Source: Psammoneis japonica
Lineage: Eukaryota
DNA: 64,000 bases
Assembly: GCA_008632985.1 (NCBI GenBank)
Contig: QPGO01000227.1
Span: 1-64,000 of the forward strand
Direction of reading: 5' to 3'
Below are positions 1 to 24,751 of the stretch, piece after piece. The notes below the pieces were generated by a model. The model ran no database searches and had not been told where the DNA came from. It saw nothing but the letters and a program-made list of their open reading frames with translations. Each line of letters starts with the position of its first letter. The first letter of the stretch is position 1. Position numbers and translations under genes: made by a program.

Positions 1-180
1 TTCACGGGGGATACGGCATACTCTACAAAAATGCGTGCGGCGATGATTGGAGGCACCTGCGCTGGGCGCGCGGGTGTCGGGGCCCCCCCGTTTTTTCCAG
101 TGTTGGTGTCACGTACCCCCCAATACTTATTTCCACGTAGGAAAGATATAGCGGGGCCCCACTGCGGGGGTGCCACTCTA

Positions 181-560
181 CACTGCAGATGAGATTCTCT
201 TCATTTATGCTCCGAATATTTTATTCTGAGCAACGCTTTATTTAAATTATCCCGACACAATGTGGGACATTCAGAGCAAATAAGAGTTAATTAAGGCGAT
301 AACGCCCACGCAGAGCACAATCAGAGTAAATTTGGTTATTCGGAGCCAGAGAATTTTATTTAGAGCATTGTATCCAGAGCATTAATTTGTAAATTAGAGC
401 ATTGTGCTGACATTCAGAGCGCTGCTGTGATTGTGTCCATTCAATCAGAGCACGACTCTGAACAATGTTTGGATGCCCGTGGAATCTCCATTTAATTAGA
501 GCAAAGCTCTGAATGAACAACGGACATTTAACTAGAGCAAAGCTCTGAATAAACAACGGA
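181..560. repeat. Left TIR and subterminal repeat array (AGAGC/GCTCT motifs)
   Basis: Many (C/T)AGAGC(A) copies in both orientations. There is also a near-tandem duplication of tagagcaaagctctgaat.aacaacggac (about 497-561). This is typical of CACTA-family subterminal regions. Confidence 0.75.
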
Positions 561-582
561 CGACGACAGCCTCTCCATTTAA

Positions 583-972
583 GACGCGTTCCAGCCCTAG
601 GTGGGACTCCGTGTGACATTGGGCCCGTAGAATTCTACGTGCGAGCTCCGTAGTACGAGAATTTAATTAATGGATATGTTTGTCTTCAACATCAAATAAA
701 AGGCCAAGTTTGTGGTACAATTATGCCTCTTACCACTCGACGTTTTTGCAAATGCACCTGCCCTACGCGATTCCTAAGACATTATAGAATCGCGCTGTAA
801 CAAAAAATGTCAAAAGTTTTTGGACGGATCGCTCAATAAGTGTACCGTAAAATGACACAAAATATAAAAAAAATCACGTAGAATTCTACGTGCGCGACAT
901 ACGACGAGATTCAAAAAACTATCGATGTCACAGTTCAGTGGTACGAGGTCCCACCTAGACCTGGAACGCGTC
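583..972 (+). mobile_element. MITE, GAC-terminus family copy 1 (least mutated)
   Basis: Terminal inverted repeat GACGCGTTCCAG...CTGGAACGCGTC with TSD TTAA (579-582, 973-976). Homologous to four other copies in the window. Confidence 0.9.
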
Positions 973-1632
973 TTAAACAGATCACAACTATGAACAAATT
1001 TGCTGATGCTCTGAACAACTGTCATTTACGAAGCTGTGCTTCGATTGACTCTGTTGACAAACACATCCGCCGAACCCTGACTGTGCCGGTGAAATCAAAT
1101 CCCAAGCAATCATGTGTTGTGTTGCGTCGTGCGCATGTGTTGCGTTGCCTTGTTGTTTGTTGTTGTTGTTTCGGGTTGTCCTTCGGCGCCGTTTGTCAGA
1201 TGCAGCTGACATGGTCTTTTGACAACACTGCACACACAATGCAAACCTGCAATTGCAAGAACCATTCAATGCGTTCATGCAAACCCAAGCTGCCTTTCTT
1301 TGTCCAAGACTTGTTCCAGACTCAGGTGGCGCGCACTTGCCCCTTTTTCGCACCCTGTCAGAATTTTTATGCACCATCCAATTTGAAAAAAATAAATGTT
1401 AAATCTACTGTCAAAATATTTTTATATTTAAATTCCGTCTCGTAGGTCAATGTGACTGTTGCATGTCAGCGTGCGAGTGTGTGGGAAACACGCGGAGGGA
1501 TGCAACCTTGTAGTTTGCTCCTCGCCTCACAAAGCAGCTGCACAACTTTCTTTTTTGCAAATCGTTGAATCAGTCCAAAGGCTTGTGCTTCAGACACGGA
1601 CACAAAAGAGCATGTGGGCAACAAACGAACAC

Positions 1633-4600
1633 ATGCCTCGCTGCAAAGGCATTGGCCGCAATCACAAATCAGGCACTGGGCGGAACCAGCAGGCCTCAAG
1701 CCGTGAAGTTTCTTCTGTTTCATCCTTGAGGAATGCATCCACTTTGGCTGCTGGCTGCAGTGGAGATGTCGCCTCTATGAATTGCGAACATCGTGTCTCG
1801 TCTACAGCAGAGGGTGCAACCTTTGCCGAAGTTGCAGTTGGTGCTACCGTCGCTCCCGACCAAAACCAAAACAGAGACGACAGTTTGAATGTACAAGAAT
1901 CTGCCGGTGCACCATCTGATCCAGCCGATGCCACGGGAAACATCTCCATTGTCCCCCCACGGGAGAGCGCCACAAAGCATCTTTCATCACACAAAAGAAA
2001 GCGGGAGAGCGCCACCAAGCGTCTTTCATCATACAAAAGAAAGAAAATTGAGAAGGCAGAAATAGTCGAAGCTGGAACGACCCACCCATTTGCATTCACT
2101 AAGGGAGGCAAACAAAGAAGCAAAGCCGCTGCTGAGAAGGCTCGGAGAAAAGAAATTTGGAAGCTTCTTGACATAGTGCAAAACCTTGACTCAGAAGAGC
2201 AGCGGGTTTCCGTAGTTCAAGGTTTCCTAGAGCACCGCGAAATGACGTCAGTTTCAAAATCGATAGGGTACTATCTTGAGGAGGAACGGCAAGCAGCAGT
2301 ATTATCGTACAATCAGCAACAGAAAATGATAGCGCGAGCCATTGAAACAGACAAACAACGAGGCCGTCCCGACGATGACCGAAGCAATTTCGTTGACAAC
2401 CTGTTGACGGCATCCCAAGCGTCCCCTGACAAAGCACCTGCGCCAAAGAAACTGTTCAGTGGCTCTGGCATGTCCTCCAAGACGCTCAACCGTCGAATGA
2501 TGAAAGCCAAGGAGAAACGTAAAGATTTGATAGCCAAGGCCAAAGGGGTGCGATGGTCTACAGGGCGTAAGCGGAAAAGGTGGCAGAAAATTTCGACGGA
2601 GATTGAAGACAAGCTGGAGAATTGGATACGAAAACACGAGCTAGTAGTTAACTCTCCCATCACTAGCGACACACTCCTGGTGAAAAATCGAAAAACGGGA
2701 AAGAAGGAGAGAAAAGGTAAGTTGCTTTTGCCGGTGTCGGTACGAGAACTCCACAACAGCTTGATCCTACCTGAATCTGCGGGCGGGCTGAAAGAAGCCC
2801 GCAAGGAGGATGGCACGGTATTAATAAGCGACACGATGCTTCGTTCTCTCCTAAAAAAGCTGACGCCAGAGCTTCGAAAAATGACTGAGCGACACAAGCA
2901 AATGTGCGGTTGCGAGGCATGCATTGTGACTGGAACCCTACTCCGTGATCTGTATGCATACAGGTCAAGAGCTGCGACCAGAATGAAAAATAGCATTGCC
3001 GGCCTTCCCAGCAATGAGAAGTCCGCAGCGGAGAGGAAGTTGCATGAATACACAAGTTTAATATACACTCCCGACGGTGAACCCAAGTACAGGCGACCCG
3101 CGGATGCCACCAAGCTGTTGCAGTGTGCAAATGTTGGTGAGCTCGGTCATCCTCGATGGGAATGTGTGTTGCGTCGATGCAAGCATTGTCCAAAGTACCT
3201 TCCACCTGAACCCGAGCGATCCGAAGTATCTAGTGCGACAACAGATATATCGTTCCACACCTATGCACCCCACACAAGATGTTCTGAGCATGGCATTCTC
3301 CCCCTGAACTCCGAGAAATGCGACCGGTGTGAGGCCCCGGCTAACAAAGAAAAGAAGGGGAAAGTACGAACGAGGAAGCTGCTTACCCTTTACAAAAAGC
3401 CAATAGGAGTATTCCACAAGGATTATTTGAAACCGGCGCTCGAAAAGATGGCGTACCACTGGCCACATGTGACGATGCTGGGAAAGAATCATTGCGGCAA
3501 GCTTCGAAAGGAGACATTCGCTCGAATGGTAACGGACCTATACACACACCGAGACTATGCAGAGCGACTGACTGAAGCAATGAATAACAAGATTCAGTCG
3601 GAACACTTCGGACAGAACAGGGACTTGTCGATGGAGGGATGCTCACTGGAATTCTTTTCTGATGAAATAGTAAAGAGATATCGCGAGACGGGGGAACTGC
3701 CCACGGTCGAGGATAGCACGATGGAGTTCCATTCGCATCTTTCTGATAACTCAAAGCAAAATGCAAAGTACACTCACGCGCACATGTGTGAGATGTTGAA
3801 TTACTTGCGAAACAGAGGCATTGTATTGTTGAACAACACCTTGTGGGACAACACTGATGGATGCTTGTGCCAGTATCGATCCGCTCTTGCCATGTACTGC
3901 CTTTCCGTCCTAGCAGTCAAATACCAGATAGTCATCAATCGAGCCATTGGCGCCCCAGGTCATGGCAAGGACCTAGTCGATGGTTTGAATGCCACAGACA
4001 AGCGCTTCTTGCAAGACCTGTTCAAAATTCCATCAACACCAGCGGACATTAATGACGAAAGAAAGATGGAGCCGCACTCAATGACAGGGGACGAAGACAA
4101 TAGCTTGGCAAAGGTTGCCGCCGAAGCCTTGAGCAATCCATCAAGGATCTCTGGTGTAAAGGGAGATAAGAAACACGCGAAGCGTGAGAGTGAAGCTAAA
4201 ATGGACAAGAGAGAGTACCACGTGCAAAACCCAGATGATGTGCTTCACAAAGGATTGGACAAAAAGGCAATTGGATACGAGAAGGGGAGCCGCAATGGGC
4301 TCATGTCGCATCACAACGTACAGGCGGACCACAATCTTGGCGTGGGTCGGGTTGCAAACCGGCGTATCCCCTGCGGATGCAAACCTTGCATGACGCAGCT
4401 TAAGTTGCCTTGGCAGCCAGGTGTCAAGCCTGAAGAGCAACAACGCTATGCTCCCTCGACTGATTGCGTGTATCGTGACATATTTGGATCATTTAATGAC
4501 TGGCGGATCATAACATTGGTGGACAGAAATGAGCGAGATAAGGATGATGACGAAGAAGTGTACGAATCTGTACTTGCCGGTATGACTGAGACAATGTATG

Positions 4601-5145
4601 ACAAAATCCAAGCTGGTGGATTTGGAGCTGTGTCCACAGAAGATCCTGAAGCAGATGGGCATTATTTGATGAAATGGAAGAATGGGCCATACACTCTACA
4701 AGATGACGTAACCCTGTCCGAGTCCAACCATTTCAAGAGAGGCGATCAAGTTGTCGAAGGTACATACTTGACCAAAGTGCCGAGAGCAAAAGGCTGGTAC
4801 ACAAAGGCACCTGAAGAAAGTGAGGAAGAGCAAACAACCTTGGTTAGAGTTCAGCATGTGGTTGCAGGGGCGATTGAGCTGTCTCCCGAGAGTGATTCAT
4901 TAGAGCTTCCACGGACATGCGACAAAACGGCAGCACGAAGACTCGGCCCACTCCACATAAGTCAAAATGATCACAACATAATTGTAGACCAGATTTCCCT
5001 CCGAGAATTCCTTGATTATGAAGAGAACAGAACGACGAGTTCTACAGATGGGGAGGGCGCTGATTGGGAAGGTGACAACGACGATGAAGACTTCGATGAC
5101 GTTAGCGATGAAGACAGTGAGGAGGAGCCACATGAGTGCTACTAA
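1633..5145 (+). CDS. Sola2-like DDD transposase
   Basis: Motifs DYAERL..KIQSEHF, HLSDNSKQ, WDNTDGCLCQYRS and APGHGKDLVDGLNA match the Sola2 pattern (DFAENY/QSxHW/SDGxxxQYK/HGKGxxDG). It has Cys/His clusters and an acidic tail. ATG at 1633 is chosen as the likely start, although the ORF is open from 1459. Confidence 0.8.
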   Translation: MPRCKGIGRNHKSGTGRNQQASSREVSSVSSLRNASTLAAGCSGDVASMNCEHRVSSTAEGATFAEVAVGATVAPDQNQNRDDSLNVQESAGAPSDPADATGNISIVPPRESATKHLSSHKRKRESATKRLSSYKRKKIEKAEIVEAGTTHPFAFTKGGKQRSKAAAEKARRKEIWKLLDIVQNLDSEEQRVSVVQGFLEHREMTSVSKSIGYYLEEERQAAVLSYNQQQKMIARAIETDKQRGRPDDDRSNFVDNLLTASQASPDKAPAPKKLFSGSGMSSKTLNRRMMKAKEKRKDLIAKAKGVRWSTGRKRKRWQKISTEIEDKLENWIRKHELVVNSPITSDTLLVKNRKTGKKERKGKLLLPVSVRELHNSLILPESAGGLKEARKEDGTVLISDTMLRSLLKKLTPELRKMTERHKQMCGCEACIVTGTLLRDLYAYRSRAATRMKNSIAGLPSNEKSAAERKLHEYTSLIYTPDGEPKYRRPADATKLLQCANVGELGHPRWECVLRRCKHCPKYLPPEPERSEVSSATTDISFHTYAPHTRCSEHGILPLNSEKCDRCEAPANKEKKGKVRTRKLLTLYKKPIGVFHKDYLKPALEKMAYHWPHVTMLGKNHCGKLRKETFARMVTDLYTHRDYAERLTEAMNNKIQSEHFGQNRDLSMEGCSLEFFSDEIVKRYRETGELPTVEDSTMEFHSHLSDNSKQNAKYTHAHMCEMLNYLRNRGIVLLNNTLWDNTDGCLCQYRSALAMYCLSVLAVKYQIVINRAIGAPGHGKDLVDGLNATDKRFLQDLFKIPSTPADINDERKMEPHSMTGDEDNSLAKVAAEALSNPSRISGVKGDKKHAKRESEAKMDKREYHVQNPDDVLHKGLDKKAIGYEKGSRNGLMSHHNVQADHNLGVGRVANRRIPCGCKPCMTQLKLPWQPGVKPEEQQRYAPSTDCVYRDIFGSFNDWRIITLVDRNERDKDDDEEVYESVLAGMTETMYDKIQAGGFGAVSTEDPEADGHYLMKWKNGPYTLQDDVTLSESNHFKRGDQVVEGTYLTKVPRAKGWYTKAPEESEEEQTTLVRVQHVVAGAIELSPESDSLELPRTCDKTAARRLGPLHISQNDHNIIVDQISLREFLDYEENRTTSSTDGEGADWEGDNDDEDFDDVSDEDSEEEPHECY

Positions 5146-5330
5146 ATTAGACATGTGTAACATCTGCTCTACCACTTGAGAATGGCATTCAGGATGTTTG
5201 CACTAAGCGGACTACCAAAGCAGGTGACATATTACGACAGAAATGCACAGGTTAGGATTGGAAATGTCAAAGCAAAAACGGCTCATATGGCACATGGCCT
5301 ACCTTTGTATGCCCCAATTAACACCCAAAT

Positions 5331-5983
5331 AACATAAACGCTCCGTCTGGTTGCTAATAGTAACAAAGAACCCCCACTGCAAGCTACTCCTGACGTATAC
5401 GGGACGGTTGATCTACCGTCTACCTTCTGCAGACGGGAAGGTAGAAGTCACTCCGAATCGGAAAATAGGCATCACCAAGTCAACAAGAAAGCTCAAATCG
5501 ACGTCCAACTAACATAAACGCTCCGTCTGGTTGCTAATAGTAACAAAGAGCGCCAACTGCAAGCCACTCTTGACGTATTCGGGACGCTTCATCTACAGCG
5601 CACGGGGCGGCGGGACCAGAGAACACGTGGTATCGCGACAGATGTGGGGTTTAGAAGTAAAAATTATGGTGCAGTAACCCCTCAAGCAGAACAGAGCTTA
5701 CCTATGAATGGGAATAGAGCCACAGAGACCCGAATGAAGGCTCTTATTGTTGTTCCCGACGTCGATCTACCGCCTACCTTCTGCAGACGGGAAGGTAGAA
5801 GTCACTCCGAATCGGAAAATAGGCATCACCAAGTCAACAAGAAAGCTCAAATCGACGTCCAACTAACATAAACGCTCCGTCTGGTTGCTAATAGTAACAA
5901 AGAGCGCCAACTGCAAGCCACTCTTGACGTATTCGGAACGCTTCATCTACAGCGCACGGGGCGGCGGGACCAGAGAACACGTG
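5331..5983. repeat. Internal direct repeats in the 3' region of the Sola2-like element
   Basis: aacataaacgctccgtctggttgctaatagtaacaaaga occurs at 5331, 5511 and 5866. A block of about 220 bp is duplicated at about 5410 and 5764. Confidence 0.9.
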
Positions 5984-8900
5984 ACTTGGCGACAGCAACA
6001 GAGGGTGAGAAGGGAAGAAGGAGATTGTGACGTACTGCCTTTTCCACTTTCAGAGACACGGTTCCTTGCCTGGTATGGAAATACAAGAAATGAAAGGCGT
6101 CGCTGTCAGAATAGGAACTGCTTGCCGAACGAGTGTCATGGCCTTTCGTCCTCCGTTTTGGCGCCTGTTTGTACTGCTGTTTTTACTGTACAATACCTGT
6201 GGATGAATCCCCATACAGTCGTTGTCGCTCATTTGTCCGTTGAATGATGTTGCCCAACAGTGAAATCTCTACTATATTTGTAATAATTCTTTTCTATATA
6301 GTAATTTATGTACCTTTTGTGAAATTATATGAATATCTGATTGAGCTGAAATTTTTATGTATGTTATTCAAGACCCAATAAAGATTTAAAAATTTCGTTG
6401 AATCCGATGAAAAATTCGATCGCTTATCTTTTACGGTACCATTTCACGTCCAAAAACTGAATCTATCAACAGAAACGACGATATGGGTACACGCACGAGA
6501 CCTTCCTGTATGTACCCATACCATCACATTTGAAAATCATAGTGTTACATCGTTCGAAAATGGCACCGCAAGTTTGGACTGCGCGTTTCATGCGAAAAGG
6601 GGCATTTTTTCGCGCGTGAGCGCACCTGAGTCTGGAACAAGTCCCAACCTTGTAACTGCTTGATCCAAAAACAACATCACACTTTTCGCCACAGCACTTT
6701 GCAGGGAACAGTGGGTTGGTTTTGAAGTGCGCTTGAGCAAAACATTTTCCGTCATCTTGATGGACCAAGGCATGGAACAAGTGGGCCTCCTCGCACTTGC
6801 GCTGAAAACACAAACAAACAAACACAATTGGTTTGCGTGCGTGAACAAGACAACACAACAACAGGCATGCCAAATCAACAATGACGTTTGCTCTGTGCCT
6901 GCGAATTGCAAGCAGTTGTTTGATCCACTTGAGCCACAACGAGTGTTGCAGTTTTGTGTGTGCGTTTGTCATTTGCTGTCTTTGTCTTTGTTGCAAACAA
7001 ACAACAAAGTGAGAGGTGATGTTTCCAAGATGCTGCGCACAATCCGCACGACTTCATCATGCATTCTCTCTGCTTTGTTTTGCAATGGATTTAACAATGG
7101 TTTAGAGTGGTTGGCTGGTTGAGTCTGCAAAAGAAATGCCATCATGACACACATTGAATGCCGTTAGATCAACTTCTCAATGGCAATCCGGAGCACCAAC
7201 AATGCTCTCACCTCTTCATTTGCACCATATGCCATTGTCTCTTTGACCTTTCTCATTGCAAACAACAATGGCTGTGTGAGACGTGTCCGATGAATTGCAC
7301 AATTGGCTGCAAGACAATGTGATCTTGCCGTCTTCTGTGGTGCTCTCTCTGGCATTTCAGCAACTGGGGATGGTTGAGTCTGGCATCCAGCAATGATGCC
7401 CCAAAGTGGTTGGAGCAATTGTTTCATTTGCAACTGGAGCACTGACATTGCTCTCACCTTTTCATCATTGCCACTGTCAACCACCTCATTTGCCTGGTCA
7501 CAAAGAACAGCAGGAGCAGTGTGATTGGTCAATCCAATCCATGTGTCGCGCTCTGCCTCAGAACTCTGTTCACTCACTTGTTTTTTTTGTGCTCGCTCCA
7601 GTGTTTCAACTGTCTGGGATGGTTTGGTGTGGCATCCAGCAACCCAATGAGGCCAAAGAGCTGTTAGAGCAACAGTCCAAATTGACAGCTGGAACACCGA
7701 CAATGCTCTCACCTTTTCTTTTGCACCAGTTGGCTCGTCCATCTCATCAACCTTTTGCATGAAGAACAGTGGTGTGAGCGACGTGCAATTCAGCCGCATG
7801 ACACAATGCATTTTTCTTGCCGCTGGAGCGTTCCCGGGCTCTTGTTCCGTCCTGCAACAAGGGGACCCAGACAACTGTGTCTGACAAGCCAAACAAGGCA
7901 TCAAAGCGGAAGTTGGTTAGAGCCATCCAACACCACAGCAATTGGACCACCAAATCATGTGGTCACCTGTGACACCATTTCTGCCAACTCTTCGTCATTG
8001 GAATTCCAACCATCGATGACATCCAAATCCATGGTGAGGGGTTCTAGTTCATCATTGCGCTCCCGACGAGGAATTTGCTCTGCCTCCTTCTCCTTCTCGG
8101 TTAACTTCCGCTTTGCCGTTGGTTCGGATGGGCAATTTAGCGCGGTGTCCATGGTCAGTGTTGACACCTGAGTTTCGGACTCATGTTGCGGATCAAGCAC
8201 AATCTCTTCGTTGACCATTTGGGATGAACTGGTGACTGTCATGCTGCCACGAATCGACTGGAGCAAATCTTCCTTGGACAGCGGAACTCCCATTTGTTCT
8301 GACAACATGCTTGCTGTTTTCGCAAGGTCCACAAGGGATGCAATGTCAATGTCTTTGCTGGATGCTCCCTGAGCAACTTGTTTTGATGCTTCGGTGTTCT
8401 CCTCCTGCTGTCAAGGACCGGAAATGGGAACAAAGTCGTCAACCAAACAAGATTGTCAACAAAAGGACAAACAAACAATGTGCGACTAACTCACCGCCAC
8501 TGGTTTCATCGACACGACGTAAAACTTTGCTTTGGTTGTTGTTTCCGCATTGGTTGCAGCGGGGACGGCCACACATGTTTTACCTCCATTCTCCTTGTTG
8601 CTCTTGTGCATTGCAGTTGCCACACACCAGCCTGCTTTCCGCAGCATAAACTCCACAAACGTTTTAATCATTTGACATTTGGCTTGGCGTGCCACCACAG
8701 CAAACCCGCCTCTGTCATCGCGACACATTTTGCGAGGTTTGCTGGAAGCGTCCGTGGCATGCGGCATGAGCTTCATGTTGTTTGCGGTGAACCATTTGTC
8801 AATGGCAGCAGCCAGCCATCCTCTGTTGCGATGAAAGGCGTGGAAAACTTGATGCACGAGCTGCTGATTCTCGGCTGTGCTGTCCATGCTTGCCAGAATG

Positions 8901-10127
8901 TTTTTGAAGTCTTCTGTTGTGACGGGATTGGTGTTTGTTGATGGCATTGCCACTTCCTTGTCCATTGCATTTTTCCGACAGCCCTCCAGGCATTGAGTCA
9001 TGACGTGTTGTCGAAGGGACGACCGGATTTGTGCCACCTCTTGTGGCATCTTCTTGCCATTGGGCGGCACCGTCTCCACCTCACCAAGTTGTGGACGTGC
9101 CTTTTGGTGTGACCACAAAAGAGCAGCATCCTCTGGTCTTGTGGGGTTGGCCCCTGTCGTCGGATGGAAAAAGTCTCTTGGACAATCCAATGGACGATTG
9201 GGTGCTGTCATTTTTTCCCCTGGATTTGTTGCAGAAGCTTCCCACTGCATGTCAGATCACAATGTTAGCTTCCAAATGCACACTTCGATTTCAAATGCAC
9301 CCACCTGTGTTCCCCGCCATTGCAACATCTGTCCTTGACGGGGTTGTGTTTCCCTCTGTTGAAGTGTTTGCCCTCGATGTGTTTGTAAGATCAAGGCTGA
9401 CGACCGACACCTGTGTCTGATGAAATGAATTCGTCATTGTGTTTTCGACTTCTAATCGCTTTTTACACTTGTGGATGGTCCGGGACGAGCCGAATCTGTT
9501 TGACACAATTGCAAAGTCACGGTTGCATGTTCTCATTGCACGGTTTTTGAACTGTGTTCAGTTTTGTTCTTTTCTGCATTTTTCATTGTTTCAATCAAGC
9601 ATTGTTGTTCTGAAATGAACATTGACAACCATGTCGACCTGTGTGTCAAGAAGATTGTTCTTTCCTCCCATTTGAAACAAAATTTTCCTCAAACAAAAAT
9701 TGGGTTCTCATTGGTTCACTTTTGAATGTGTGATTTTCCACAATTGAAGTTTGATTTTTCATGTGTGTTCTTTTTTAAAGTGCTCGCTTCATCTACGTTG
9801 TTGAATGAAATGCATTGTGCAATCACACGATTGGGTGGGAGTGCACGCGCGCGTGCGTGCTGCTCTTTCAGCATGTGGAACATGTGTGGGGCCCTGCGCA
9901 CAGGGCTTGTCTGCAAATGCGCAGTGCAGCAGAATGCACGTGTTTTGCGCTTTTGGTGATTGAGAGCACATGCGTTGCTCCACCTCATTTTCACAAATCC
10001 TCTGCGCTGCGTAAGCCCATCAACAGAACTGCGATCCCTCCCCTCTTTTCCATCCAATCATCTTTTGGGACTCTTCTTGAATCTTGCATCTTGCTCTTTT
10101 GTGCATTGAACAATCCCAAACGACGCC

Positions 10128-11500: not shown

Positions 11501-12152
11501 CCCACAATTGCATTGTCTTGCCGCTTGCATTTGCGCAACCTTGTTTGGACAGCCTTCGGCATTTCGAAAAAAACTGCTTCCTCCACTGCTGATTTTGGAT
11601 CTTCTGCCAGTGCATCCATTTCAAATGCATCATTCCCCAAACACCAATTCAACCACTGAATGTCTTTTGCCGGAAGAGCGAATTCATGATTGGAGTCGAA
11701 GATCCAACCACCATGCAAAGCAATGCAGTGATTGTTTGTCAACCGACAAAGAACAATGTCATCGGCAACTGTTGCGTGCTGCAGAAAAGGCCGGGCTTGT
11801 TGGCAAAACATTGGTGACTCGCAAACGCCTGCATGCCTGGAAATCGTTGGCCCCGACAACCATGCCAAGCAAGAAGAGTTGACCCACAATTGCACTGTCT
11901 TGCCGCTTGCGTTTGCGCAACCTTGTTTGGACAGCCTTCGGCATTTCGAAAAAAAAACTGCTTCCTCCACTGCTGATTTTGGATCTTCTGCCAGTGCATC
12001 CATTTCAAATGCATCATTCCCCAAACACCAATTCAACCACTGAATGTCTTTTGCCGGAAGAGCGAATTCATGATTGGAGTCGAAGATCCAACCACCATGC
12101 AAAGCAATGCAGTGATTGTTTGTCAACCAACAAAGAACGATGTCATCGGCAA
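11385..12152. repeat. Tandem duplication, about 381-bp unit x2
   Basis: caactgttgcgtgctgcagaaaaggccggg... starts at about 11386 and again at 11766. Both units end in tgtcatcggcaa. Confidence 0.92.
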
Positions 12153-15100: not shown

Positions 15101-15278
15101 TCCTTGTCCTCCTCTGATGTCCGCATTTCCTCCGGCATTTCCTCCTCCTCTTCTTCCACATCTTCTTCCTGGGAATTGTGGTTGTTCTCCCCTGTGACAA
15201 CCGGATTTCCTCATTCTCTTCTCGGGAAGCCACAACAGCCGCTTTGGCAAGAGCTTTCATTCCATTGTCCCTTGACAT
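11497..15278 (-). pseudogene. Large cargo gene C: GNAT acetyltransferase-like domain plus C-terminal papain-like peptidase domain
   Basis: GNAT-like segment IVDCVRVDRGAKVHNHGLCPFLISLAQ...HHCESLGF reads YYYESLGF after reverting TpA mutations (about 14380-14560). Papain-like Q-C-H-D pattern: QQGEKDTCVFSSLAS...NNHCIALHGGWIFDSN (about 12050-12440). The ORF is 1220 aa and its true start is uncertain. Confidence 0.6.
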
Positions 15279-15321
15279 CGCAGGCGAATCCTCGCTTCCC
15301 TTTGCTGCTGCCTTGTTTGCG

Positions 15322-16270
15322 TCAAACTGTGCAACACAACGAGGGTGCCCCAGCCAGTTCTCCAGGTCTCATTGTTGAAAACCCAATTGGCGGACTGTCG
15401 GTGGGCGACAGACGCGGAAATGCAGGGAAGAGACATGACAGACGGAGACGACCCACCGACAACAGTGGCCTTGGAACATGCATGTTCTTGACAATGTCAA
15501 GGAAAAAGGAGCTTGCGCCGTCTGCCAACACAACCCAGATCAGCCGGTCCCCTTTTCTTCAAACTGCACAACACAACGAGGGTGCCCCAGCCAGTTCTCC
15601 AGGTCTTGTCATTGAAAACCGATCAGCGGAATGTCACTGGGCGACGGACTGGCAGTCCCACTCGTCCGTTGCTGTGCAACCATCAGCAGTTGACGCGGAG
15701 ACACAGGGAAGAGACGCGACAGACGGAGACGACCCACCAACAACAGTGGCCTTGGAACATGTGTGTTCTTGACAATGTCAAGGAAAAAGGAGCTTGCCCC
15801 GTCTGCCAACACAACCCAGATCAGCCGGTCCCCTTTTCTTCAAACTGCACAACACAACGAGGGTGCCCCAGCCAGTTCTCCAGGTCTTGTCATTGAAAAC
15901 CGATTGGCGGAATGTCGCTGGGCGACGGACTGGCAGTCCCACTCGTCCGTTGCTGTGCAATTGTCAGCAGTTGACGCGGAGACACAGGGAAGAGATGCAA
16001 CAGACGGAGACGACCCACCGACAACAGTGGCCTTGGAACATGTGTGTTCTTGACAATGTCAAGGAAAAAGGAGCTTGCGCCGTCTGCCAACACAACCCAG
16101 ATCAGCCGGTCCCCTTTTCTTCAAACTGTGCAACACAACGAGGGTGCCCCAGCCAGTTCTCCAGGTCTTGTTGTTGAAAACCGATCAGCGGAATGTCGCT
16201 GGGCGACGGACTGGCAGTCCCACTCGTCCGTTGCTGTGCAATTGTCAGCAGTTGACGCGGAGATGCAGGG
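15322..16270. repeat. Tandem repeat, 281-bp unit, about 3.5 copies
   Basis: tcaaactg..caacacaacgagggtgccccagccagttctccagg occurs at 15322, 15559, 15840 and 16121 (spacings 237, 281, 281). Confidence 0.95.
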
Positions 16271-16943
16271 AAGTTGCTGACTTTGTCTGCAACCAATTTC
16301 GTGGCAGTGCCTGATGATGATTGTAAAGAGTCAACGAAATGCAGCATGCACACCAAATCATCTGAGATGCGAGATAAAGAAACAACGCACAGACTGCGCC
16401 GTGAGCTCAGCATTGTTCTTGCAGCAGCGATGAAGTTTCGGTTCTGGTGGTGTCTTGCAATGAACCTTCACTAAAGGTCACAACATTGTCAACACTTGTT
16501 GACAAGTTGACAAGAATGACAACATGCAATGGAAGGATGAATGACAACAGCATTGCATGGGCAGCAAAGTTTGATGACAACAGCGGTGTCAGCGGCGGTG
16601 TCATGGATGCACTCTTTTCCGACATTTGTGTTGTTGCAACATGCGGCAAATGCAGTGATGTCATAGAAAAGAGGGGACTCATTTTCTTGTTGAATTCCAC
16701 AATGAGTGCAGAATTTTTGTGGTGTTCTGTTTGTGGCGCTGCAGGCGGCCACAACCAGTTGGCCACGTGAGGGGATGACATGCAAAATTCCGGATTCCGG
16801 TGTTCTGACTCACCCAACATGCATCATCTCTCAATCACGACCAGACAAAGGCGACATCATCATCGCACAATCACATTCTCGTGCAAATGACAAAGGAGTT
16901 GTGAAGCTGTTCTGCTCTCATTGTTTTTCATTGTAGCATCTGC

Positions 16944-19900
16944 TTGCTCAAATTCGAACCATCCATGCATCACAGAAAAGGCAAATGTGACGCTCCCGCT
17001 TGGAGCAGATCCGGCGCTCCCAAGGGAAGAAGGACAAGGAGTGCGCGTCCATCAAGAGATCCGCCGGGTCGCTTGATTCGTCAAAGATCCGAATCGCCTG
17101 TTCAAAGTTCCACAGGTCGGTTGTGGTCAAATCGAAACGACGGATCCAGGGAACGCAGACTGTCCAAACGGCGATGCAGGTCGAGGTCGAATTCCCGCCA
17201 ACGATGAAGGTGTCAATCGCCGTCCCGGTCTTGGTCAAGTTCTCGGTCTCGCTCTTTGTCAAGTTCTCGGTCTCGATCGCGTCATGGACCAGACATCGTT
17301 GTCGTTCTGGAACTTCTTCGCGTGGTTCTCCTTGTCGATCAAGGTCTCGTCATTCTGGGTCTGGGTCTCATTCTCGTCGAAGGCATCGGCGACGGTGTCG
17401 GTCACCATCCATGGGTTACCACAACTCAAGTTCCCGGCACAGTTGCAGGGAACGTTGTGGCGCTGTTCCCTGCTCTCCATGCAGGGATCACCAAGGTTGA
17501 TCGCAATCGCGGCAGAGGTCACGCCAAAGGTCTCCATCTAGTTCACCGCAATGGTCTCGTCAAAGGTCTCTGGATTCTTCCAACAAAAGGTCTAGATTGT
17601 CACCTCGGCGTAGACACAGGTCACCGCACAGGTCACCATCCAGGTGCAGGTCACCCTCCAGGTCAAAAAACAGGTCTCCAACAATGTTGAGGTCACCATC
17701 CAGGTGTCGGGGTCGATCGCGTGTTCGCAAACCCAGGCATTCGTTGCGCTCGCACAGGTTGGGTACATCGAGGAAATCTGAGAGTCGCGGTTGGGACAAA
17801 AGCCATCCTCCCGCACGTTCTGCAGACGACAGCATCTGCTCAAGGAGTTCAAGCAGAACAAGTCAACCTGCCAACAGTGGCACGGTCCCATTTTGTCAAA
17901 TGCGACTCCGCAGAAACAGAAGTGGCAGTCCAATCTCACACCGCACAAGATCTGCCACATCCAGGTCACGCAGCCTGGAATCTCCCCTGGGACGGTCTCC
18001 ACCTCCTCGCAAGCGAAGACCAGCAGACCAGTTGCTTTGCTTGCTGAGTGTGCAGCACATGCGGGAAGAAGCAAAACGCCATGAGGACTTGGCTTCTGTG
18101 CATCACGTCGAGGAACAATCAACAAACAGTGATGTCATTGATTCTGTTTTCTCAAGTCAGAGCGACCAATCATCATCGCATTGGCATGATGGCGCAGTTG
18201 TGTCAGCACTTCCCATTGATTTCTCTGATTCTGATTTGCCCAATGGAAGCAGAGACGAATCATCTGATTGCCATTCAAGCGCTTTTGAGGCAGCACTGCC
18301 CTTGCAGATGCAGCGTCCAACTTTCACTGGCAACTGCAAGACTCGGCGGGAGAAAATAGTGTTGTCCCGTTCCCTGCTGCAAGAAGAGAGCTTGCATGCC
18401 AAAAACATGTTCAATGTTGTTTTTGTGTTTGAGGAGATGATCAGTGCTTGCTTCCGCCACAATTCTGGAAAAGCCAAAGCACTTGACAATTTGGGGAAAC
18501 TGTCTGGAGAACGCAGGCAAAAGCATGCCACCCATCTGCATGTTGTCTTCCAGTCAAAACTGCAGGTTTGCTTGGCAAGCAGAGCAGACATCCCCCACTG
18601 CCAAGTGCCAATTCGGATTTGGCGTTGACACTTGGACAGGATGAAACTGACATCAAATGGTCCTTGTGTGATGTTGATTCCGACCATTGCAATGACTTCA
18701 TGTTGGTGCTTAACCACTTTCCAAACAAACACCCAATCCACCGCATTGACTGGGGCCGATCGCACGTGCTGATTGACAAATGCCATGAACGTGAGTCGAA
18801 AAGCAACCAGGGAAAGAAAACAAGGAAAGGCAATGTTGGCAAGAAAACTGGCAAGAGAAAACGTTTTCAGAAAAAGAAAAGCAACAAGCCCAAGAAAACT
18901 GGGACCCATCTTCAACCAAAGGACCACTTTGCAGATTTCGGCGTTTGCACCAACACAAGCACTACAAGGGAAGGCCATGCTGATGGTGTTGCACGGCCTC
19001 GAGTTGGGAAAGGGACTGAGGAAGCAATGCCTTTTTTGAGTCAATGTCTGAAATTGCGGAGACACTGAATCCCACTTTTACATCTAGATTGTGGCACGAT
19101 GAAGAGACAAAAAACCGACGTCAAGACCACGCGGGTTCATTGCCGGATGCCTCAGCAAATGATGTCGTGGAGGCACTGCGTCTGGCGAATGCCAAATTTG
19201 GCAAAATTACAGATTGCCACTTGGATGAATGCAACGGCCAAAACAAAGACATGACCCCAGTTTTGTCTGTTTCAAAAATCACAAATGATGGAGAAACAAG
19301 AGATGCTGTCATTGCTTGCACCCGCAGTTCTGTAGAAACTGCGGAGAAGAGGATTCGACTTGCCTTGCCCATCACAACATGAGCCATTCACACCTGCCAA
19401 AACTTGCCCGTGCACCGGCAACGACTGGAGCCGGCAATTGTCCATGATCACTTGACAGGATTTAAGGGACACAAAGGAATCAATGCATTAAAAGGCGACT
19501 GCAACATGGAACCAACGTCACACCACCAGCTCTTTCTACACTTCATTGTCGCAATGATTTGACAAATTCTCACTTACGTTGCCGCAGATTGTCGCTGTTC
19601 AGACTTGCTTTGAGGTGCACCCGGCGCAGTCACATTGCTTTGGAGCAGTTGCGTTGGTTCTTTTATCCGTTGATGCCTTCCAGCCACCAAGCGACCCCTG
19701 CGGATTGGGATGTCTCATTTGCGAAATGATGGTCCACGTAAAAGAGGCACATTCTAGAGGCATCCCTCTGCGATGTGCGTCACGCAGCAAGAGACCACCC
19801 TTGCCAACCAAGGCTGAATGGAAAAAACGGAATGATAAAAAGGGAAAGTGGATTTGCGACATTTGGAATGAGCATGCAAACAAGCCACAAAACAAAGACA

Positions 19901-20592
19901 TCGTCTCCATTTACAAGAAACTGATGAATCAGTTGTCTGAATTCTCCCCGCAATGTGACGTCTTGTGTCTCAATCATTCGATTGCGATCATGGCAGAAAT
20001 TGGCCAGCTTCCCATTTGGATGCTGCATTGTTGCCACTGCAAAAAGGATTCCCTCCCTAACACAAAAATTGCCGAAGAACATGGACTGGGCAAGATGGAC
20101 GATGCGGACATGTTCCGTTTGGCTCAAACCACACAGGGTGCATTCACCGTGCAGTTGAACAACCCCGGGGGTGATGACAAGAAAGACACTCACTTCACCA
20201 TTCATTTTGTTGAGAACATTCTTTGCAAAATGTTTCGCTTCTGGATCAGCAAAGGGAGGGTAAACTGCTGCGATGTCCATTTTGCAGGAATGTCATTTTT
20301 TGTTTTCCACGATGAGGCGAATTTTCTTTGTCACTTTGATGGTTCCAGTGACCCCGAAGAGCTGCCTCCCGGTGGACCAATCCAAAACTTTTCATGTGAA
20401 AGTGAGGAAAAAAAGATGGAGGAGATTGCCAAAGAACTGTGTGAGGACAATGATTGGGCCGGGTCGACCTGGGATCATGACCCCATTCAAATTGCATTTG
20501 AGTTCAATTTCAACAAACTGCTGTCTAATCCACCAGAGGCGATGTTGGACATTTTGGCCCAAAACAAAATGTCAAACGCAATGAGGGACTGA
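16944..20592 (+). pseudogene. Cargo gene D: RS-rich N-terminus plus globular region with HxD/RxxxxxYxR (2OG-Fe/TET-JBP-like?) and HhH-like ENILCK motif, frameshifted
   Basis: SRSRSPS repeats run about 17060-18010. Successive plus-strand ORFs 17597-18628, 18568-19068, 19044-19382 and 19579-20592 read as one decayed protein. Motifs are CHLDECN, RDAVIA(C/Y)TRSS and FVENILCKMFR. The domain identity is tentative. Confidence 0.45.
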
Positions 20593-20840
20593 TCTGTGTG
20601 GTTCCACTTCACAAAGAGAAAGAGGAACATGAAATGAGAGCAGATGCCCAGCTCGCATGTCCTTCTTGTCCCCCGCAGCTAGCTGCGTGTCGGCCACAAC
20701 AGCGCGTCTTTAAACAAAAGAGCATGTGCACTGCTCCTTCACGGGTCTGTCCACCATTGGAGCACGTGCACTGCTCATGCCATTGTCTCCCCCACACAGG
20801 CTGGATTGTCAACCGAGACGGATGACAGAGCAGTTGATGG

Positions 20841-23800
20841 TTAGCCGGCTGTCAACCAATCGCCGAAAATGTCCAAGCTGAGTTCCGTTTTCACAAAGCA
20901 TCCATCTCTGGTTCTTTCATTCCACAGATGGCTGACACAATAAAAGCTGTTTAGGAACGTTTCACCATCATCTTCCATCCTTGGCAATGCCAGCACAAAC
21001 TGATGTCCCAAACTGTTGCAAAGATCTGTTGCCGCATCAAATGATTTTCTCCTGTCTGTTGCTTGAACTGGCGCCATCCAACACAAGTCCAAAATTTCTT
21101 CACCTTCCTCATCCACAAATTCTAAAGCAACTGCAGTTGCAGAGGAGCGAGCAGCTCCTTTTTCACCCACTGGTCGAAACAACAACCACACAGTGCAATT
21201 GGACGACACAAGGCCAGCAAAGGGAAGGCATTGCTGTCTTGCCTCCAACAATGTGTTCCAGTTGCTGCAGATTTTGAAGATGCCATCTAGACGTCTGTTC
21301 TTTGATGAACCTTTCTCACTGTCACGTTCTAAAAGCCAAGAAATGGTTGCATGTTGGTGAATGTGACGCAAAGCGATTGTTTGCCAGTCTGCATTGCTGC
21401 GTTTGATGCTGACCTCTGGCCTCACAGTTTGCACACCACTTTCTCCAGAATCGTCACCCTCCCAATGCAGAATGGCCGGTCCATCATGTTGGTGGGATTC
21501 CGCGACTCCCAGCATTCCAAGTGAAACAGATTTCACAAAGTTCGCCTTTTTTTTCTTTTTCTTCTGAACTTCACCGTCGCCTTCTACGGCATCGTTGTCT
21601 GCCTCATCTGAGGGTGCTTTCATCAACCACATGTCCATCTCGACCATTGCATCCAAGCATGTCAAAACCATTTCGTGAAGGTCCCCAACAACACGCTCCG
21701 AAGACATGACTCGGCTCAGACAAGCTTGTGTGGCAGAAGCAAATCGAAGCAACATCCGTGACACACCTGCATGATCCGAGTGATTGTCCATCACCCGTTG
21801 TTGGTGAAGCGCAGGCAGCGCAACCACAACTTTTACTGTCCTTGCCCAAAAGAAGCAATTTTCACTGACCCAGGGACCTGTGCCCCACTTGCTGGTGGAC
21901 AGTGGATGAGCCGCAAAACATTTGGTTGATCGGAGGGACTGGATGGACCGCAAGCATTTGTTTGCTTGCTTTCCAAAGGTTGCCTGAAGCTCAAATCGAG
22001 AGAACAATTTGGACATCATTTCGAAATCACTTTTAACATTGCCCAGACCAATGGTGTGCATTGGTGCATGATGACAACGTGAAAGTGCTTTGGGATTGAG
22101 CCAAGGTGCTGGATGTGTTGGGCAAGGCAGATTGCATTTTGCAGCTGCGTGCACTGTGTCGATGTGGCGTTGGATGACGGCACAAGTACGAAGATGGGCC
22201 GTGAGGTTAGCTTTGGTCCAAAAGCGCTTGGCACTTGGGGTGCCCGGCGGATGTGTTCTCATGTTGTGATGCGCAAACACGATCGCTTGCTGCAACCAGG
22301 GAACAGTGAGTTTGATGGAGGCCAACCATTGTCTTGGGGCGGCCACACGTTGGCGTTTGCGTCTGCGACGAGAAGAATCGGTCGATGTGGATGGATCTGT
22401 GGCCAAGTCTTGAGTGGATTGGATGTCATGTGCCGACGGGTTGAAGACAGTCACTTCCCTGCCAGTGGGAGGTTTTGGTGCACCTTCGCGTTGGTCATGT
22501 GAACAGGGGCAGTCAGCCGGAGCCAGAAAACGAAACGCAGTGTCGAGCACATTCCAGGATGCACAAGCATTGTGTGGACATGTGCTAGAAACAGGAGGAA
22601 CGTTGATTGCAACTGCGCCATCCACTGGTGCTCCTTCTTCCTGTGAATTGTCGGCGACATCAGAAGGATCCTCGGACGTGCTAAAATGGTTGCTCACATG
22701 TGCTTTGCAACAGAGCTGACAATGAGGCAAGTGATTGAAAGAACAGTTTCCATCTACATGGCAGGCATGTTCCCAAAACGTTGAACAGCTGCCATTGTGG
22801 TCTCCAACACGAAACATGCAGGAACGTTCAGGCCGATCCACACAAACACTGAGTTTGCCAGCTTTAACCCGTGTGAGCTTCTGCAGTCCGCCATGGTAAA
22901 ACCAATGGCTTTCTTCAGACAATGACTGCAGTTCGCGCTCAAATGTTGTCTCCACAACTTCATGATTTTCTCCCTTGGACGACATTGCCATGAAGTGGGT
23001 GTGGCGTCCACTGGAAGAATTGGGAGGAGGGCAGCAGGTGTGCGTGTTGAGCCACACTTGATTGCATGACTTCTTCGTGCCGTTGGGATCGAAGTCATCA
23101 CGCCATTCTTGCACCCAAAGACACAACACAAAACCGTCGACATCTTCTTTAAGTTCCATGAACAAGGAATGCACCGCCGGTGTGCGCGAAATGGCAGGTT
23201 GTGAATCTTGAACAATGACGTCCGCATCAAAATAGAACTTGTCAAATTGCGTGGCTTTTGCCAACTCATTTGCAAGCACGTCTTTAAAGGAAACACAGGA
23301 ATGACTGCCATCATCGGTTTTCCTGGGAACAGGATGAGGCAAATTTGGCACAATGGCACGTTTGCTGGACAAATGCAACATTTCAAAATCTTTCACAGAA
23401 GTGGGGACACGAGTCCGACGAAAAATGGACAAGTCTGGATCACGGCTGTTTGTGGCTTGCAGCATGCATTCTGCCAACAATTCACGTTGTTTCTTGGTGA
23501 GTTGTGAAAGCAGGCTAGCCATCACAAGTGAAAAATGTGCCTCTTCTTTGGTCACCTCGGTGACGGGCAATTCGAAAGCGTCAGCTGTCAATTTCTGGAT
23601 GCCTTGTCCGGGGTGCGAATGCTCGTACCAAAAAAAGGCCGGGCTGTTGGAGTCCGGATCAAAGCCTTGTCGGAGATCATCAACACGCAATGGAGGACGT
23701 GAGCCGGCATCATTGACGTCGTAAATCCAATCATCTTGGTTGGAAGGCTCCTTGCTCTCGGAAACAGAGGCGTCATTGTCATCGTTGCACCAACATTCGT

Positions 23801-24140
23801 CGTGTGTGGGCTCCGCCAGCGCACACACGGCATTTACACTGCTTGTTGGTGCGGCTTTCAAAGCTTCAAAGGACTGCACATGAGTTGGAGTTTTGGCGTG
23901 CTTGACGCAGGTTTTCCAATCTTTAAGAATTGGAAGATGACGACCACCGCTGTTTGTGTTGCTGCTGTTCCAGCAGCATTTGCAGACAAAAAAGGAATCA
24001 ACTGAACACTCCGGGTTGAGACATTTGCCGGAACAGAGGCAATCACCCATGTTTACGATGCTGTTGGAGTTGTCACATTGAGTCAATGGAACAGTCGAGA
24101 AGCAATGTTTGCAGCATGTGGAGAAGGCTGTGGAGGCCAT
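20841..24140 (-). CDS. CMC/EnSpm (CACTA/Plavaka-like) transposase, hypermutated
   Basis: 1099-aa ORF with an N-terminal Cys cluster and the motifs EWRDDFDPN, VCVDRPERS and HAPMHTIGLGNVK (DxMHxxxLG-like). These are characteristic of CACTA-family DDE transposases. The ORF starts about 540 bp inside the right TIR. Confidence 0.72.
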   Translation of the reverse strand: MASTAFSTCCKHCFSTVPLTQCDNSNSIVNMGDCLCSGKCLNPECSVDSFFVCKCCWNSSNTNSGGRHLPILKDWKTCVKHAKTPTHVQSFEALKAAPTSSVNAVCALAEPTHDECWCNDDNDASVSESKEPSNQDDWIYDVNDAGSRPPLRVDDLRQGFDPDSNSPAFFWYEHSHPGQGIQKLTADAFELPVTEVTKEEAHFSLVMASLLSQLTKKQRELLAECMLQATNSRDPDLSIFRRTRVPTSVKDFEMLHLSSKRAIVPNLPHPVPRKTDDGSHSCVSFKDVLANELAKATQFDKFYFDADVIVQDSQPAISRTPAVHSLFMELKEDVDGFVLCLWVQEWRDDFDPNGTKKSCNQVWLNTHTCCPPPNSSSGRHTHFMAMSSKGENHEVVETTFERELQSLSEESHWFYHGGLQKLTRVKAGKLSVCVDRPERSCMFRVGDHNGSCSTFWEHACHVDGNCSFNHLPHCQLCCKAHVSNHFSTSEDPSDVADNSQEEGAPVDGAVAINVPPVSSTCPHNACASWNVLDTAFRFLAPADCPCSHDQREGAPKPPTGREVTVFNPSAHDIQSTQDLATDPSTSTDSSRRRRKRQRVAAPRQWLASIKLTVPWLQQAIVFAHHNMRTHPPGTPSAKRFWTKANLTAHLRTCAVIQRHIDTVHAAAKCNLPCPTHPAPWLNPKALSRCHHAPMHTIGLGNVKSDFEMMSKLFSRFELQATFGKQANKCLRSIQSLRSTKCFAAHPLSTSKWGTGPWVSENCFFWARTVKVVVALPALHQQRVMDNHSDHAGVSRMLLRFASATQACLSRVMSSERVVGDLHEMVLTCLDAMVEMDMWLMKAPSDEADNDAVEGDGEVQKKKKKKANFVKSVSLGMLGVAESHQHDGPAILHWEGDDSGESGVQTVRPEVSIKRSNADWQTIALRHIHQHATISWLLERDSEKGSSKNRRLDGIFKICSNWNTLLEARQQCLPFAGLVSSNCTVWLLFRPVGEKGAARSSATAVALEFVDEEGEEILDLCWMAPVQATDRRKSFDAATDLCNSLGHQFVLALPRMEDDGETFLNSFYCVSHLWNERTRDGCFVKTELSLDIFGDWLTAG

Positions 24141-24399
24141 GACTTACACAGACAAAGGTGGAAATGCAAAAATTGTGTTGTGTGTGCGATGCGCCGACAC
24201 AGGCGACAATTGGCAACAACAGAGCAACAATGATGCTCGTCGACAGATCGCCACAAACAAAAATGACGAGATTACGAGCATTGACTGGCAACCATGAATG
24301 CATGCGTGCACATGCGCCAATGACGCTTTGAATCGTCCATCATTGCGTCTTGTTGTGTGTGCATGTGTTCATTGTTCGTTTGCTTTGAAGAAAAACCAT

Positions 24400-24681
24400 T
24401 TGCTCTGAGAATGTAAAAGGTCGCAGGAGGCTGCAGTCATTTGAAGCGAATGCCCTGAACAATTGCACTCAATTGAAGGCATCCTCTGAATGCGGTTAAA
24501 CAGGGCAAACATTGGCATTTTGCTCTGATTGTCTCACACACAGAGCATGTCGCTCTGACTGTGGCTTGGACAGAGCAAAGCCACAATTGGTTGTTTAGCA
24601 CTTGCAATCGGAGCAAAATGCTCTGTTTGTTTTTTATTTAGAGCGAAAACAGCTCATTCAGAGTGATTCTCATTTGCAGTG
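24400..24681. repeat. Right subterminal repeats and TIR of the CACTG element
   Basis: Repeated GCTCTG/AGAGC motifs ending in gattctcatttgcagtg|TA. Confidence 0.75.
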
Positions 24682-24751
24682 TAGCGCCGGCGACCGCGCG
24701 TTCGCCTCGAAACTTGGAACTTCCCAAAACACACAAGATGCCGCAGTCACC

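Follow-up and report, generated by a model that had tools for sequence, protein, structure and literature searches.

Plant En/Spm elements encode the transposase TnpD together with TnpA, a protein that binds the subterminal repeats. Larger relatives with more genes have been described from red algae. In the accessible text of 10.1101/2025.02.11.637652, the giant Plavaka elements of Bostrychia moritziana (EnSpm/CACTA superfamily) measure 17.4-19.1 kb and carry, besides the transposase, the accessory genes PAG1-3, of which one is a methylase/SET gene, another encodes a ParB-like protein with a 2-oxoglutarate (2OG) oxygenase, and one is of unknown function; tandem repeats are present too, and in PAG3 it was HHpred alone that detected the 2OG-oxygenase and ParB-like parts. 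From Chondrus crispus, enlarged En/Spm families of 16-20 kb with 4-5 open reading frames (ORFs) have been reported (Kojima 2013 as cited in PMC6431247, in the accessible text of the latter). The fungal ESTA elements, which are EnSpm-like and have TA duplications, and other members of the CACTA/EnSpm-Mirage-Chapaev-Transib (CMCT) clade carry genes for TET/JBP dioxygenases, which also occur in KDZ elements; the clade itself is defined by CA..TG termini and 2-5-bp target-site duplications, with RAG1 and Transib as its only members of solved structure (PMC12730594, accessible text). For one diatom genome, too, EnSpm is listed as a repeat class (PMC7466962, accessible text). Here, we describe a 24,501-bp unit of this broad type from Psammoneis japonica, located at positions 181-24681 of the first 64,000 nucleotides of contig QPGO01000227.1 (assembly GCA_008632985.1), a stretch that we call the window. 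With a probability of roughly three in four, we regard this unit as one copy of a multi-copy cut-and-paste transposon that encodes a RAG1/Transib-like CMCT transposase and accessory genes of its own.

The unit lies between 17-bp CACTGCA terminal inverted repeats (TIRs) that are identical at 15 of 17 positions (Table 1), and these are the matching CACTG ends, 24.5 kb apart, of the original prediction. When the 64 kb were scanned with a degenerate 17-mer, the two ends proved to be the sole zero-mismatch sites; three further sites carried three mismatches each, against an expectation of 1.35 sites with up to three mismatches. Just outside the ends, the left flank reads ...GCCACTC before TA, and the right flank continues after TA as GCGCCGGCG. 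A 3-bp target-site duplication is incompatible with these letters (CTA on the left versus TAG on the right), and TA alone is common to both sides. TA is thus a candidate for the proposed duplication, but since such an identity arises once in 16 by chance and the flanks of one copy were read, it counts as weak evidence. Within the element, both subterminal regions are crowded with AGAGC/GCTCT motifs, 11 at the left and 7 at the right against a window background of 0.57 per 200 bp, and their arrangement is mirrored between the two ends, in agreement with the subterminal repeats noted earlier. When two nested inserts that other copies skip exactly (394 and 5,340 bp) are subtracted from the 24,501 bp, 18,767 bp remain, close to the 18.8 kb first estimated. 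No second copy of the main element was found elsewhere in the 64-kb window, which otherwise holds only copies of a miniature inverted-repeat transposable element (MITE). To the right there follows a 324-aa ORF (24682-25573 region) whose first ATG (24738) lies 56 bp downstream of the end of the element, and for this reason the element would occupy what is likely a promoter or 5' leader. This neighbouring ORF has a weak armadillo-repeat match (PF23744, E 3e-5) that falls under the cut-off.

Other copies of the element were read from the contigs of one DNA run, probably of the source sample; the depth values add up look-alike contigs and should not be taken as formal copy numbers. At position 57 of the left flank the depth was 40, and in the nested 5.3-kb insert it was 57.7. 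Inside the left end it stood at 573 (position 463) and 982 (position 1097), and all bins from 6004 to 20000 gave 575-1929 with look-alike contigs summed, the individual contigs there having depths of 322-663. Because this contrast of about 10-30-fold is uniform across the inner ORFs, the interior is amplified as a whole, which points to some 10-30 copies that include every inner ORF. Moreover, an interior amplified throughout, next to a flank at depth 40, supports a single transposon and not two unrelated ends, as had been proposed. Between copies, we counted 199 transitions and 33 transversions within 6004-20000, and many of the differences are adjacent CA/TG double changes, the pattern expected of methylated CpG decay. 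CpG depletion as a mark of special methylation of the element was ruled out, the observed/expected ratio being 0.68 in the element versus 0.65 in the remaining window (0.90 in the nested insert). Two other stretches of the window, 44001-46000 and 54001-58000, have ratios of 0.22-0.32, far under the window mean, and may be old methylated repeats. Copies also vary in the number of 281-bp units in a tandem array upstream of the 1237-aa ORF, since one contig from elsewhere in the family jumps over 607 bp of it (joint 15448>16056).

The ORF that adjoins the right end encodes an intact DDE transposase. No Pfam family matched the 1100-aa protein, and 16 strong homologues (35-50% identity) align with it from end to end. 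When 1.84 billion proteins were searched with a profile made from the close relatives, 2283 representatives were retrieved at E<=0.001. Across 82 aligned sequences, with identities down to 19-24%, the residues D349, D436, C475, C522 and M695 are invariant in all 82, as is H696, whose pairing H691-x4-H696 is invariant in the 17 close relatives; C478 and E761 are conserved in at least 90% of the sequences. The order of motifs is then D...D...C(2)C...H(4)H...E, where C(2)C stands for C475-x2-C478. In the AlphaFold model (pLDDT, the predicted local distance difference test score, 88.4; pTM, the predicted template modelling score, 0.83), D349 is placed in strand 340-351, D436 directly after strand 422-435, and E761 in helix 760-768.

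To identify structural relatives of this model, the PDB was searched with Foldseek, and ranks 1-49 were all RAG1, RAG-like or HzTransib chains. Structural alignment with VIA-align gave a Z score of 13.3 for the RAG1 core (root-mean-square deviation of 4.3 Å for 458 residues, model positions 200-947), 12.8 for BbRAGL and 10.6 for HzTransib, with the P element transposase as the next family at 6.6. Across the RAG1 and RAG-like cores, 447-466 residues were aligned at Z 11.6-13.3 and the layout of the DDE and zinc motifs is alike, and with HzTransib 374-409 residues were aligned at Z 8.5-10.6. In contrast to RAG1, Transib and ProtoRAG, with which the identity is 8-11%, the protein has extra N- and C-terminal domains, its element has a 2-bp and not a 5-bp duplication, and no RAG2-like partner was seen. 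At the level of sequence, the single transposase protein found 0 matches among PDB sequences; the sole PDB profile match, a TRIM chimera with an E of 0.54, is at chance level.

By fold and motifs, we file the 1100-aa protein in the CMCT clade, because the DDE and C(2)C/H(4)H motifs, the termini and the structural kinship with RAG1/Transib all agree with this placement. In fact, the CACTG...CAGTG termini and TA flanks (read from one copy) fall within the CA..TG ends and 2-5-bp duplications of the clade. The CMC-type transposase named earlier is thus upheld on these grounds and not on those of Pfam. We do not assign it to EnSpm/CACTA in the strict sense, since a 3-bp duplication and a Transposase_21 match are missing, though subterminal arrays are present. 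Similarly, Plavaka was set aside, given that PF18759 did not match and that the termini are CACTG..CAGTG and not TGT..ACA (PlavakaA) or CATCA..TGATG (PlavakaB). Here, neither Transposase_21 (PF02992) nor Plavaka (PF18759) matched any of the 17 close and 30 distant relatives. Among the Atlas look-alike clusters of the homologue P0009, Plavaka (0.96), Transposase_21 (0.93) and DUF1258 (0.92) appear, and 42% of the members of the top cluster carry Plavaka, but these serve as leads only. Plant En/Spm elements are similar in their CACT(A/G) termini, short TIRs, two-orientation subterminal arrays and second protein. They differ from the window element, which has TA only in place of a 3-bp duplication, no Transposase_21 match, genes that are separate on both strands and do not arise by alternative splicing of one transcript, and many more ORFs. 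With ESTA the likeness is one of features alone, comprising the TA duplication, RAG1 as nearest solved relative, the C(2)C and H(3-4)H motifs and an enzyme gene beside the transposase; in ESTA, that gene encodes a TET/JBP dioxygenase and the hosts are fungal, whereas an aminotransferase-fold protein is found here (PMC12730594, accessible text). A metagenome scan returned four short loci (2.2-3.8 kb) with transposase relatives only, on which tblastn with the accessory ORFs gave nothing under E 0.1, and no relative was among the 71 pattern matches in viral contigs.

The other gene with recognisable homology encodes a class-III aminotransferase-like protein. In the window, its ORF matches PF00202 with an E of 1.1e-4 and 21.5 bits, below the gathering cut-off of 30.5. 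Homologues numbered 69 (E 1e-134 to 2e-36), 22 of them with a precomputed PF00202, and among 32 aligned family members PF00202 was matched at E<=1 in 29, at best with 1.9e-8. Throughout these 32 sequences, D206, E207, T210 and K238 are invariant, and the conserved blocks of the family include PNGSDAN, VVDEIMTGGRTG and TMGKW. Weak PDB sequence matches extend over the cofactor region, where D206 (VVDEI) falls on the DE of 5m4d_A and K238 (MGKW) on its GK; we take these columns to be the aspartate that contacts the pyridoxal phosphate (PLP) cofactor and the Schiff-base lysine. The model of this protein has a pLDDT of 89.4 and a pTM of 0.90, and its Foldseek matches in the PDB, listed through rank 50, are all class-III aminotransferases or related racemases/lyases (E 7e-10 to 2e-8, TM 0.40-0.55). 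The gene thus represents a deep and distinct family with its PLP residues kept and with a C-terminal extension, and its product is predicted to be a fold-type-I PLP protein. At the 3' end, a 384-bp duplication truncates the frame, such that about 25 C-terminal residues are lost in this copy. Within the first unit the frame terminates as ...AGLVGKHW*, and past the second unit it reads ...AGLVGKTLVTRKRLHAWKSL..., which fits the family consensus AGL-x5-K-x3-R-x-R-x-W, so that the ancestral tail is still legible in the ORF ending at 11882. Judged from its sequence, in which a helix is followed by GL[IV], a short strand, a basic turn and an R-x-W strand, this tail may form a winged helix that binds DNA, although no search upheld this. 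In bacterial MocR/GabR regulators, a winged helix is joined to an aminotransferase fold.

To see whether the aminotransferase-like gene and the transposase keep company elsewhere, we compared the sizes of the contigs bearing their homologues. Same-sized pairs involve 4 of the 17 transposase homologues and 4 of the 69 aminotransferase-like homologues, namely at 9685 bp (P0005 and P0171), 7483 bp (P0006 and P0174, proteins of 1146 aa and 523 aa), 8803 bp (P0007 and P0175) and 1,191,817 bp (P0013 and P0206). Because only about 0.2 size coincidences would by our estimate be expected by chance over approximately 1,170 pairs with sizes ranging over thousands of bases, the three short contigs very probably bear both genes within 10 kb, as inferred from their equal sizes. 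On the paired contigs, the divergence from the window proteins is of the same order: the transposases are 42-45% identical to the window transposase, and the aminotransferase-like proteins 40-42% identical to their window counterpart. Moreover, clusters of near-identical members are large (273, 119, 77 and 58 for the aminotransferase-like family, and 204 for one transposase cluster), as befits a gene of a repeated element. Taken together, this points to a putative lineage-conserved accessory gene and not to captured cargo, and we prefer the term accessory since the family appears to travel with the transposase lineage. Of the stable enzymatic cargo originally predicted, what stands is one enzyme-like gene with the transposase on four same-sized contig pairs; the sense of a captured host gene is not supported, and the other ORFs have no recognisable domain.

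A rival to this reading is that the inner genes are captured host passengers, hitch-hiking as in Pack-CACTA or Pack-MULE elements with no role in transposition. In its favour, the orphan ORFs have no visible relatives near the transposase homologues, the aminotransferase fold belongs to a family of metabolic enzymes, and the 7.5-kb contig that seems to bear the 1146-aa and 523-aa homologues is too small for an additional 1237-aa ORF, so that gene content varies at least partly between lineages. Yet Pack-type CACTA elements hold inner fragments of host genes, and here the aminotransferase-like gene is of full length bar the copy-specific loss of its tail, with 30-50% identity over 69 representatives and invariant cofactor residues. 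Its score in the window is below the Pfam class-III threshold (21.5 vs 30.5 bits), it turns up again beside transposases that have diverged to a similar degree, and the size of its clusters, in which near-identical members number as many as 273, suits a repeated element gene. We therefore think it unlikely that these genes are mere passengers.

If the unit is a transposon with accessory genes, its transposase would recognise the CACTG ends, excise the element and reinsert it with a 2-bp TA duplication, and a separate protein would probably bind the AGAGC subterminal arrays, much like TnpA in En/Spm, and aid end recognition. That partner may be the aminotransferase-like protein, for which the role of DNA-binding or regulatory partner of the element seems the most likely one; the aminotransferase fold could then act as a dimerising or ligand-binding/sensing module, with the C-terminal tail contacting DNA. 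Alternatively, the protein may be catalytically active with PLP, its target being the element's DNA or chromatin or a small molecule through which silencing is controlled, and this reading draws strength from the strict conservation of the cofactor residues. In fact, the cofactor lysine and aspartate, PNGSDAN and DEIMTGGRTG are invariant or nearly so in the 32 sequences, suggesting retained chemistry, and the excess of transitions with CA/TG double changes among copies would suit it as well. On the other side, CpG depletion in the element hardly differs from that elsewhere in the window, no substrate can be inferred from a fold match with a TM of 0.40-0.55, and PLP aminotransferases are not known to us to have eukaryotic DNA or chromatin as their target, though no search aimed at this was made. 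Related giant elements do bear enzymes that modify nucleic acid or chromatin, which speaks for such a role (PMC12730594; 10.1101/2025.02.11.637652; both in their accessible text). On balance we hold an active enzyme to be a long shot, and the same can be said of its broader form, in which a widespread Pfam-less transposon lineage (2283 transposases) would have recruited, as a conserved partner, a PLP aminotransferase-fold enzyme directed at the DNA or chromatin of the element itself or at a metabolite controlling silencing. As to the copy in the window, two insertions in the left arm and the 384-bp duplication that cuts the aminotransferase-like tail mean that it is probably impaired.

That the CACTG ends come from two elements, or from one element and a solo end, with the 24.5 kb being a composite with host DNA, is very improbable: the inverted match is short and 112 inverted pairs of at least 14 nt arise by chance in 26 kb, but depth is up 10-30 fold along the surveyed interior and falls in the nested insert only, the left flank has the depth of a single copy, an identical, mirrored subterminal motif occupies both ends, and the transposase adjoins one end while the other ORFs fill the remainder with no single-copy gap.

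Several points nevertheless weigh against an accessory-gene transposon as set out above. No empty site was recovered, with none at 180/181 among the loose ends listed, and the TA duplication and exact ends are known from the flanks of a single copy. The depth survey covers the element as far as position 20000, and summed contig depth is not equivalent to copy number. The linkage of transposase and aminotransferase-like gene comes from equal contig sizes and not from contig sequences, and one of the four pairs is a 1.19-Mb contig on which co-occurrence is little informative. For the transposase, no Pfam transposase family matched any of the 17 close relatives (E<=5) or any of the 30 distant relatives (E<=0.01), and the Foldseek E-values to RAG1 are modest, at 3e-3 to 5e-2. 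The 1237-aa ORF found no homologue at E<=0.001 among 6480 candidates of near length. Finally, as regards the DNA-binding role suggested for the aminotransferase-like protein, the search for helix-turn-helix families in its 32 members returned none.

Table 1. Features of the 24.5-kb element and its nested insertions (window positions).
Feature	Position	Strand	Details
TA, candidate left target-site duplication copy	179-180		direct reading
Left TIR	181-197	+	CACTGCAGATGAGATTC
Left subterminal region	198-578		AGAGC/GCTCT motifs at 273-546; 36-bp x2 tandem unit at 489-561
Nested MITE (not element proper)	583-972		390 bp; ends GACGCGTTCCAG...CTGGAACGCGTC; TTAA duplication 579-582 and 973-976
Nested TIR element	1308-6643		5,336 bp; 21-bp perfect ends GACTTGTTCCAGACTCAGGTG; CCAA duplication 1304-1307 and 6644-6647
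Orphan ORF inside nested TIR element	1456-5145	+	1229 aa, uninterrupted
Three putative ORFs, possibly one gene	7164-9256	-	250, 151 and 256 aa; first with ~250-bp internal repeats
Class-III aminotransferase-like accessory gene	10128-11435	+	435 aa here
Tandem duplication	11385-12152		384 bp x2.0, 97% alike; over convergent 3' ends of aminotransferase-like gene and 1237-aa ORF
Orphan ORF	11497-15210	-	1237 aa; acidic N-terminus; Cys/His-rich C-terminal module, duplicated in this copy
Tandem repeat	15411-16273		281 bp x3.1, 95% alike; between divergent starts of 1237-aa ORF and + strand ORFs
Putative ORFs	17501-20592	+	375 aa, Arg/Ser-rich (17501-18628); 344 aa (19558-20592); shorter ones between
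DDE transposase, intact	20841-24143	-	1100 aa; start ATG 24140-24138; candidate catalytic D349, D436, E761
Right subterminal region	24380-24664		AGAGC/GCTCT motifs at 24402-24640
Right TIR	24665-24681	-	CACTGCAAATGAGAATC as read on - strand
TA, candidate right target-site duplication copy	24682-24683		direct reading

Besides these two genes, the element holds ORFs for which relatives could not be found. The 1237-aa ORF is far too long to have arisen by chance and had no Pfam or PDB match, and its family may be specific to the element of this genome. From motifs alone, its C-terminal module had suggested a cysteine protease of the OTU or ULP kind, an idea that no search upheld and that was dropped. 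For the remaining orphan ORFs, no Pfam match was obtained at E<=0.01, and the rows seen at E<=1 are at chance level. By our estimate, about 0.3 chance ORFs of around 250 aa are expected in 24.5 kb and none of 340 aa or longer; the support for the ORFs at 7164-9256 and 17501-20592 consists of length and co-amplification. Hence, the layout of a transposase plus four further genes in the orientations -,+,-,+,- as first described can still be seen, with homology for the transposase and the aminotransferase-like gene only, and with the first (-) and fourth (+) places taken by sets of ORFs of 151-375 aa.

Both nested insertions are absent from other copies with precision. For the MITE, DNA contigs of other copies show the joint 579>975, and the loose ends at 582 and 973 spell the site as it is without the MITE; its summed contig depth of 46,000-79,000 is about a thousandfold that of a single copy. 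The 5.3-kb insert is skipped by the joint 1303>6644 (5340 bp, 4 shared letters, depth 592) and is itself at single-copy depth (57.7). No Pfam or PDB relative was found for its 1229-aa ORF. The MITE family recurs at least four more times in the window (29079-29471, 30558-30628, 34275-34346 and 43926-44323), and the terminal motif GAC..GTTCCAG is common to the MITE and the 5.3-kb element. A further run, X2, contains spliced contigs and behaves like RNA; it covers the nested insert only and has no bearing on the expression of the main element. One X2 contig of 2,994 nt aligns in five blocks over 1849-5211 of the nested element, and on the + strand its four inter-block gaps, like the joint 5211>5303, begin and end with CT..AC or CT..GC, which makes it a spliced minus-strand transcript. 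Its longest ORF is at most 190 aa, and the contig looks like a spliced antisense RNA across the putative transposase gene of the nested element. Elsewhere in the window, a single N stands at 32222.

As for novelty, the original prediction was of a multi-gene family possibly undescribed in diatoms; large CACTA-type elements with 4-5 ORFs are already known from red algae (PMC6431247; 10.1101/2025.02.11.637652; accessible text of both). The Chondrus crispus En/Spm families are alike in being CACTA-type, 16-20 kb long and endowed with 4-5 ORFs in place of 1-2, a comparison by description only (PMC6431247, accessible text). With the Bostrychia Plavaka elements, the window element shares the size class, the broad DDE clade, three to four extra genes across copies, internal tandem repeats and a multi-copy state. 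By contrast, it bears a class-III aminotransferase-like gene and orphan ORFs instead, its 17 close and 30 distant transposase relatives lack a Plavaka Pfam match, and the host group is presumably different (10.1101/2025.02.11.637652, accessible text). A DNA methylase or SET domain was not found by Pfam in its scanned ORFs. In the literature searched, we met neither an aminotransferase-fold partner of a eukaryotic transposon nor a description of this transposase family, though the supplementary element table of 10.1101/2025.02.11.637652 may bear on this. A giant multi-gene CACTA-type element is thus not categorically new; the apparently new part is the aminotransferase-fold accessory gene together with the transposase family.

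Multi-gene giant transposons of this sort blur the boundary between simple transposons and cargo-mobilising elements, and the known eukaryotic cases in the CMCT clade bear DNA- or chromatin-modifying enzymes. In algal genomes, moreover, the real-looking enzyme genes of such 19-25-kb repeats will wrongly be assigned to host metabolism during annotation. Being large, lacking a Pfam model and having, in its predicted structure, the whole RAG1 core architecture, the transposase family would serve well as an outgroup in tracing how RAG1/Transib arose. Were the aminotransferase-like protein an active PLP enzyme after all, amino-group chemistry would join TET/JBP, 2OG oxygenase, N6-methyladenine (6mA) methylase and SET in the epigenetic management practised by giant CMCT elements.

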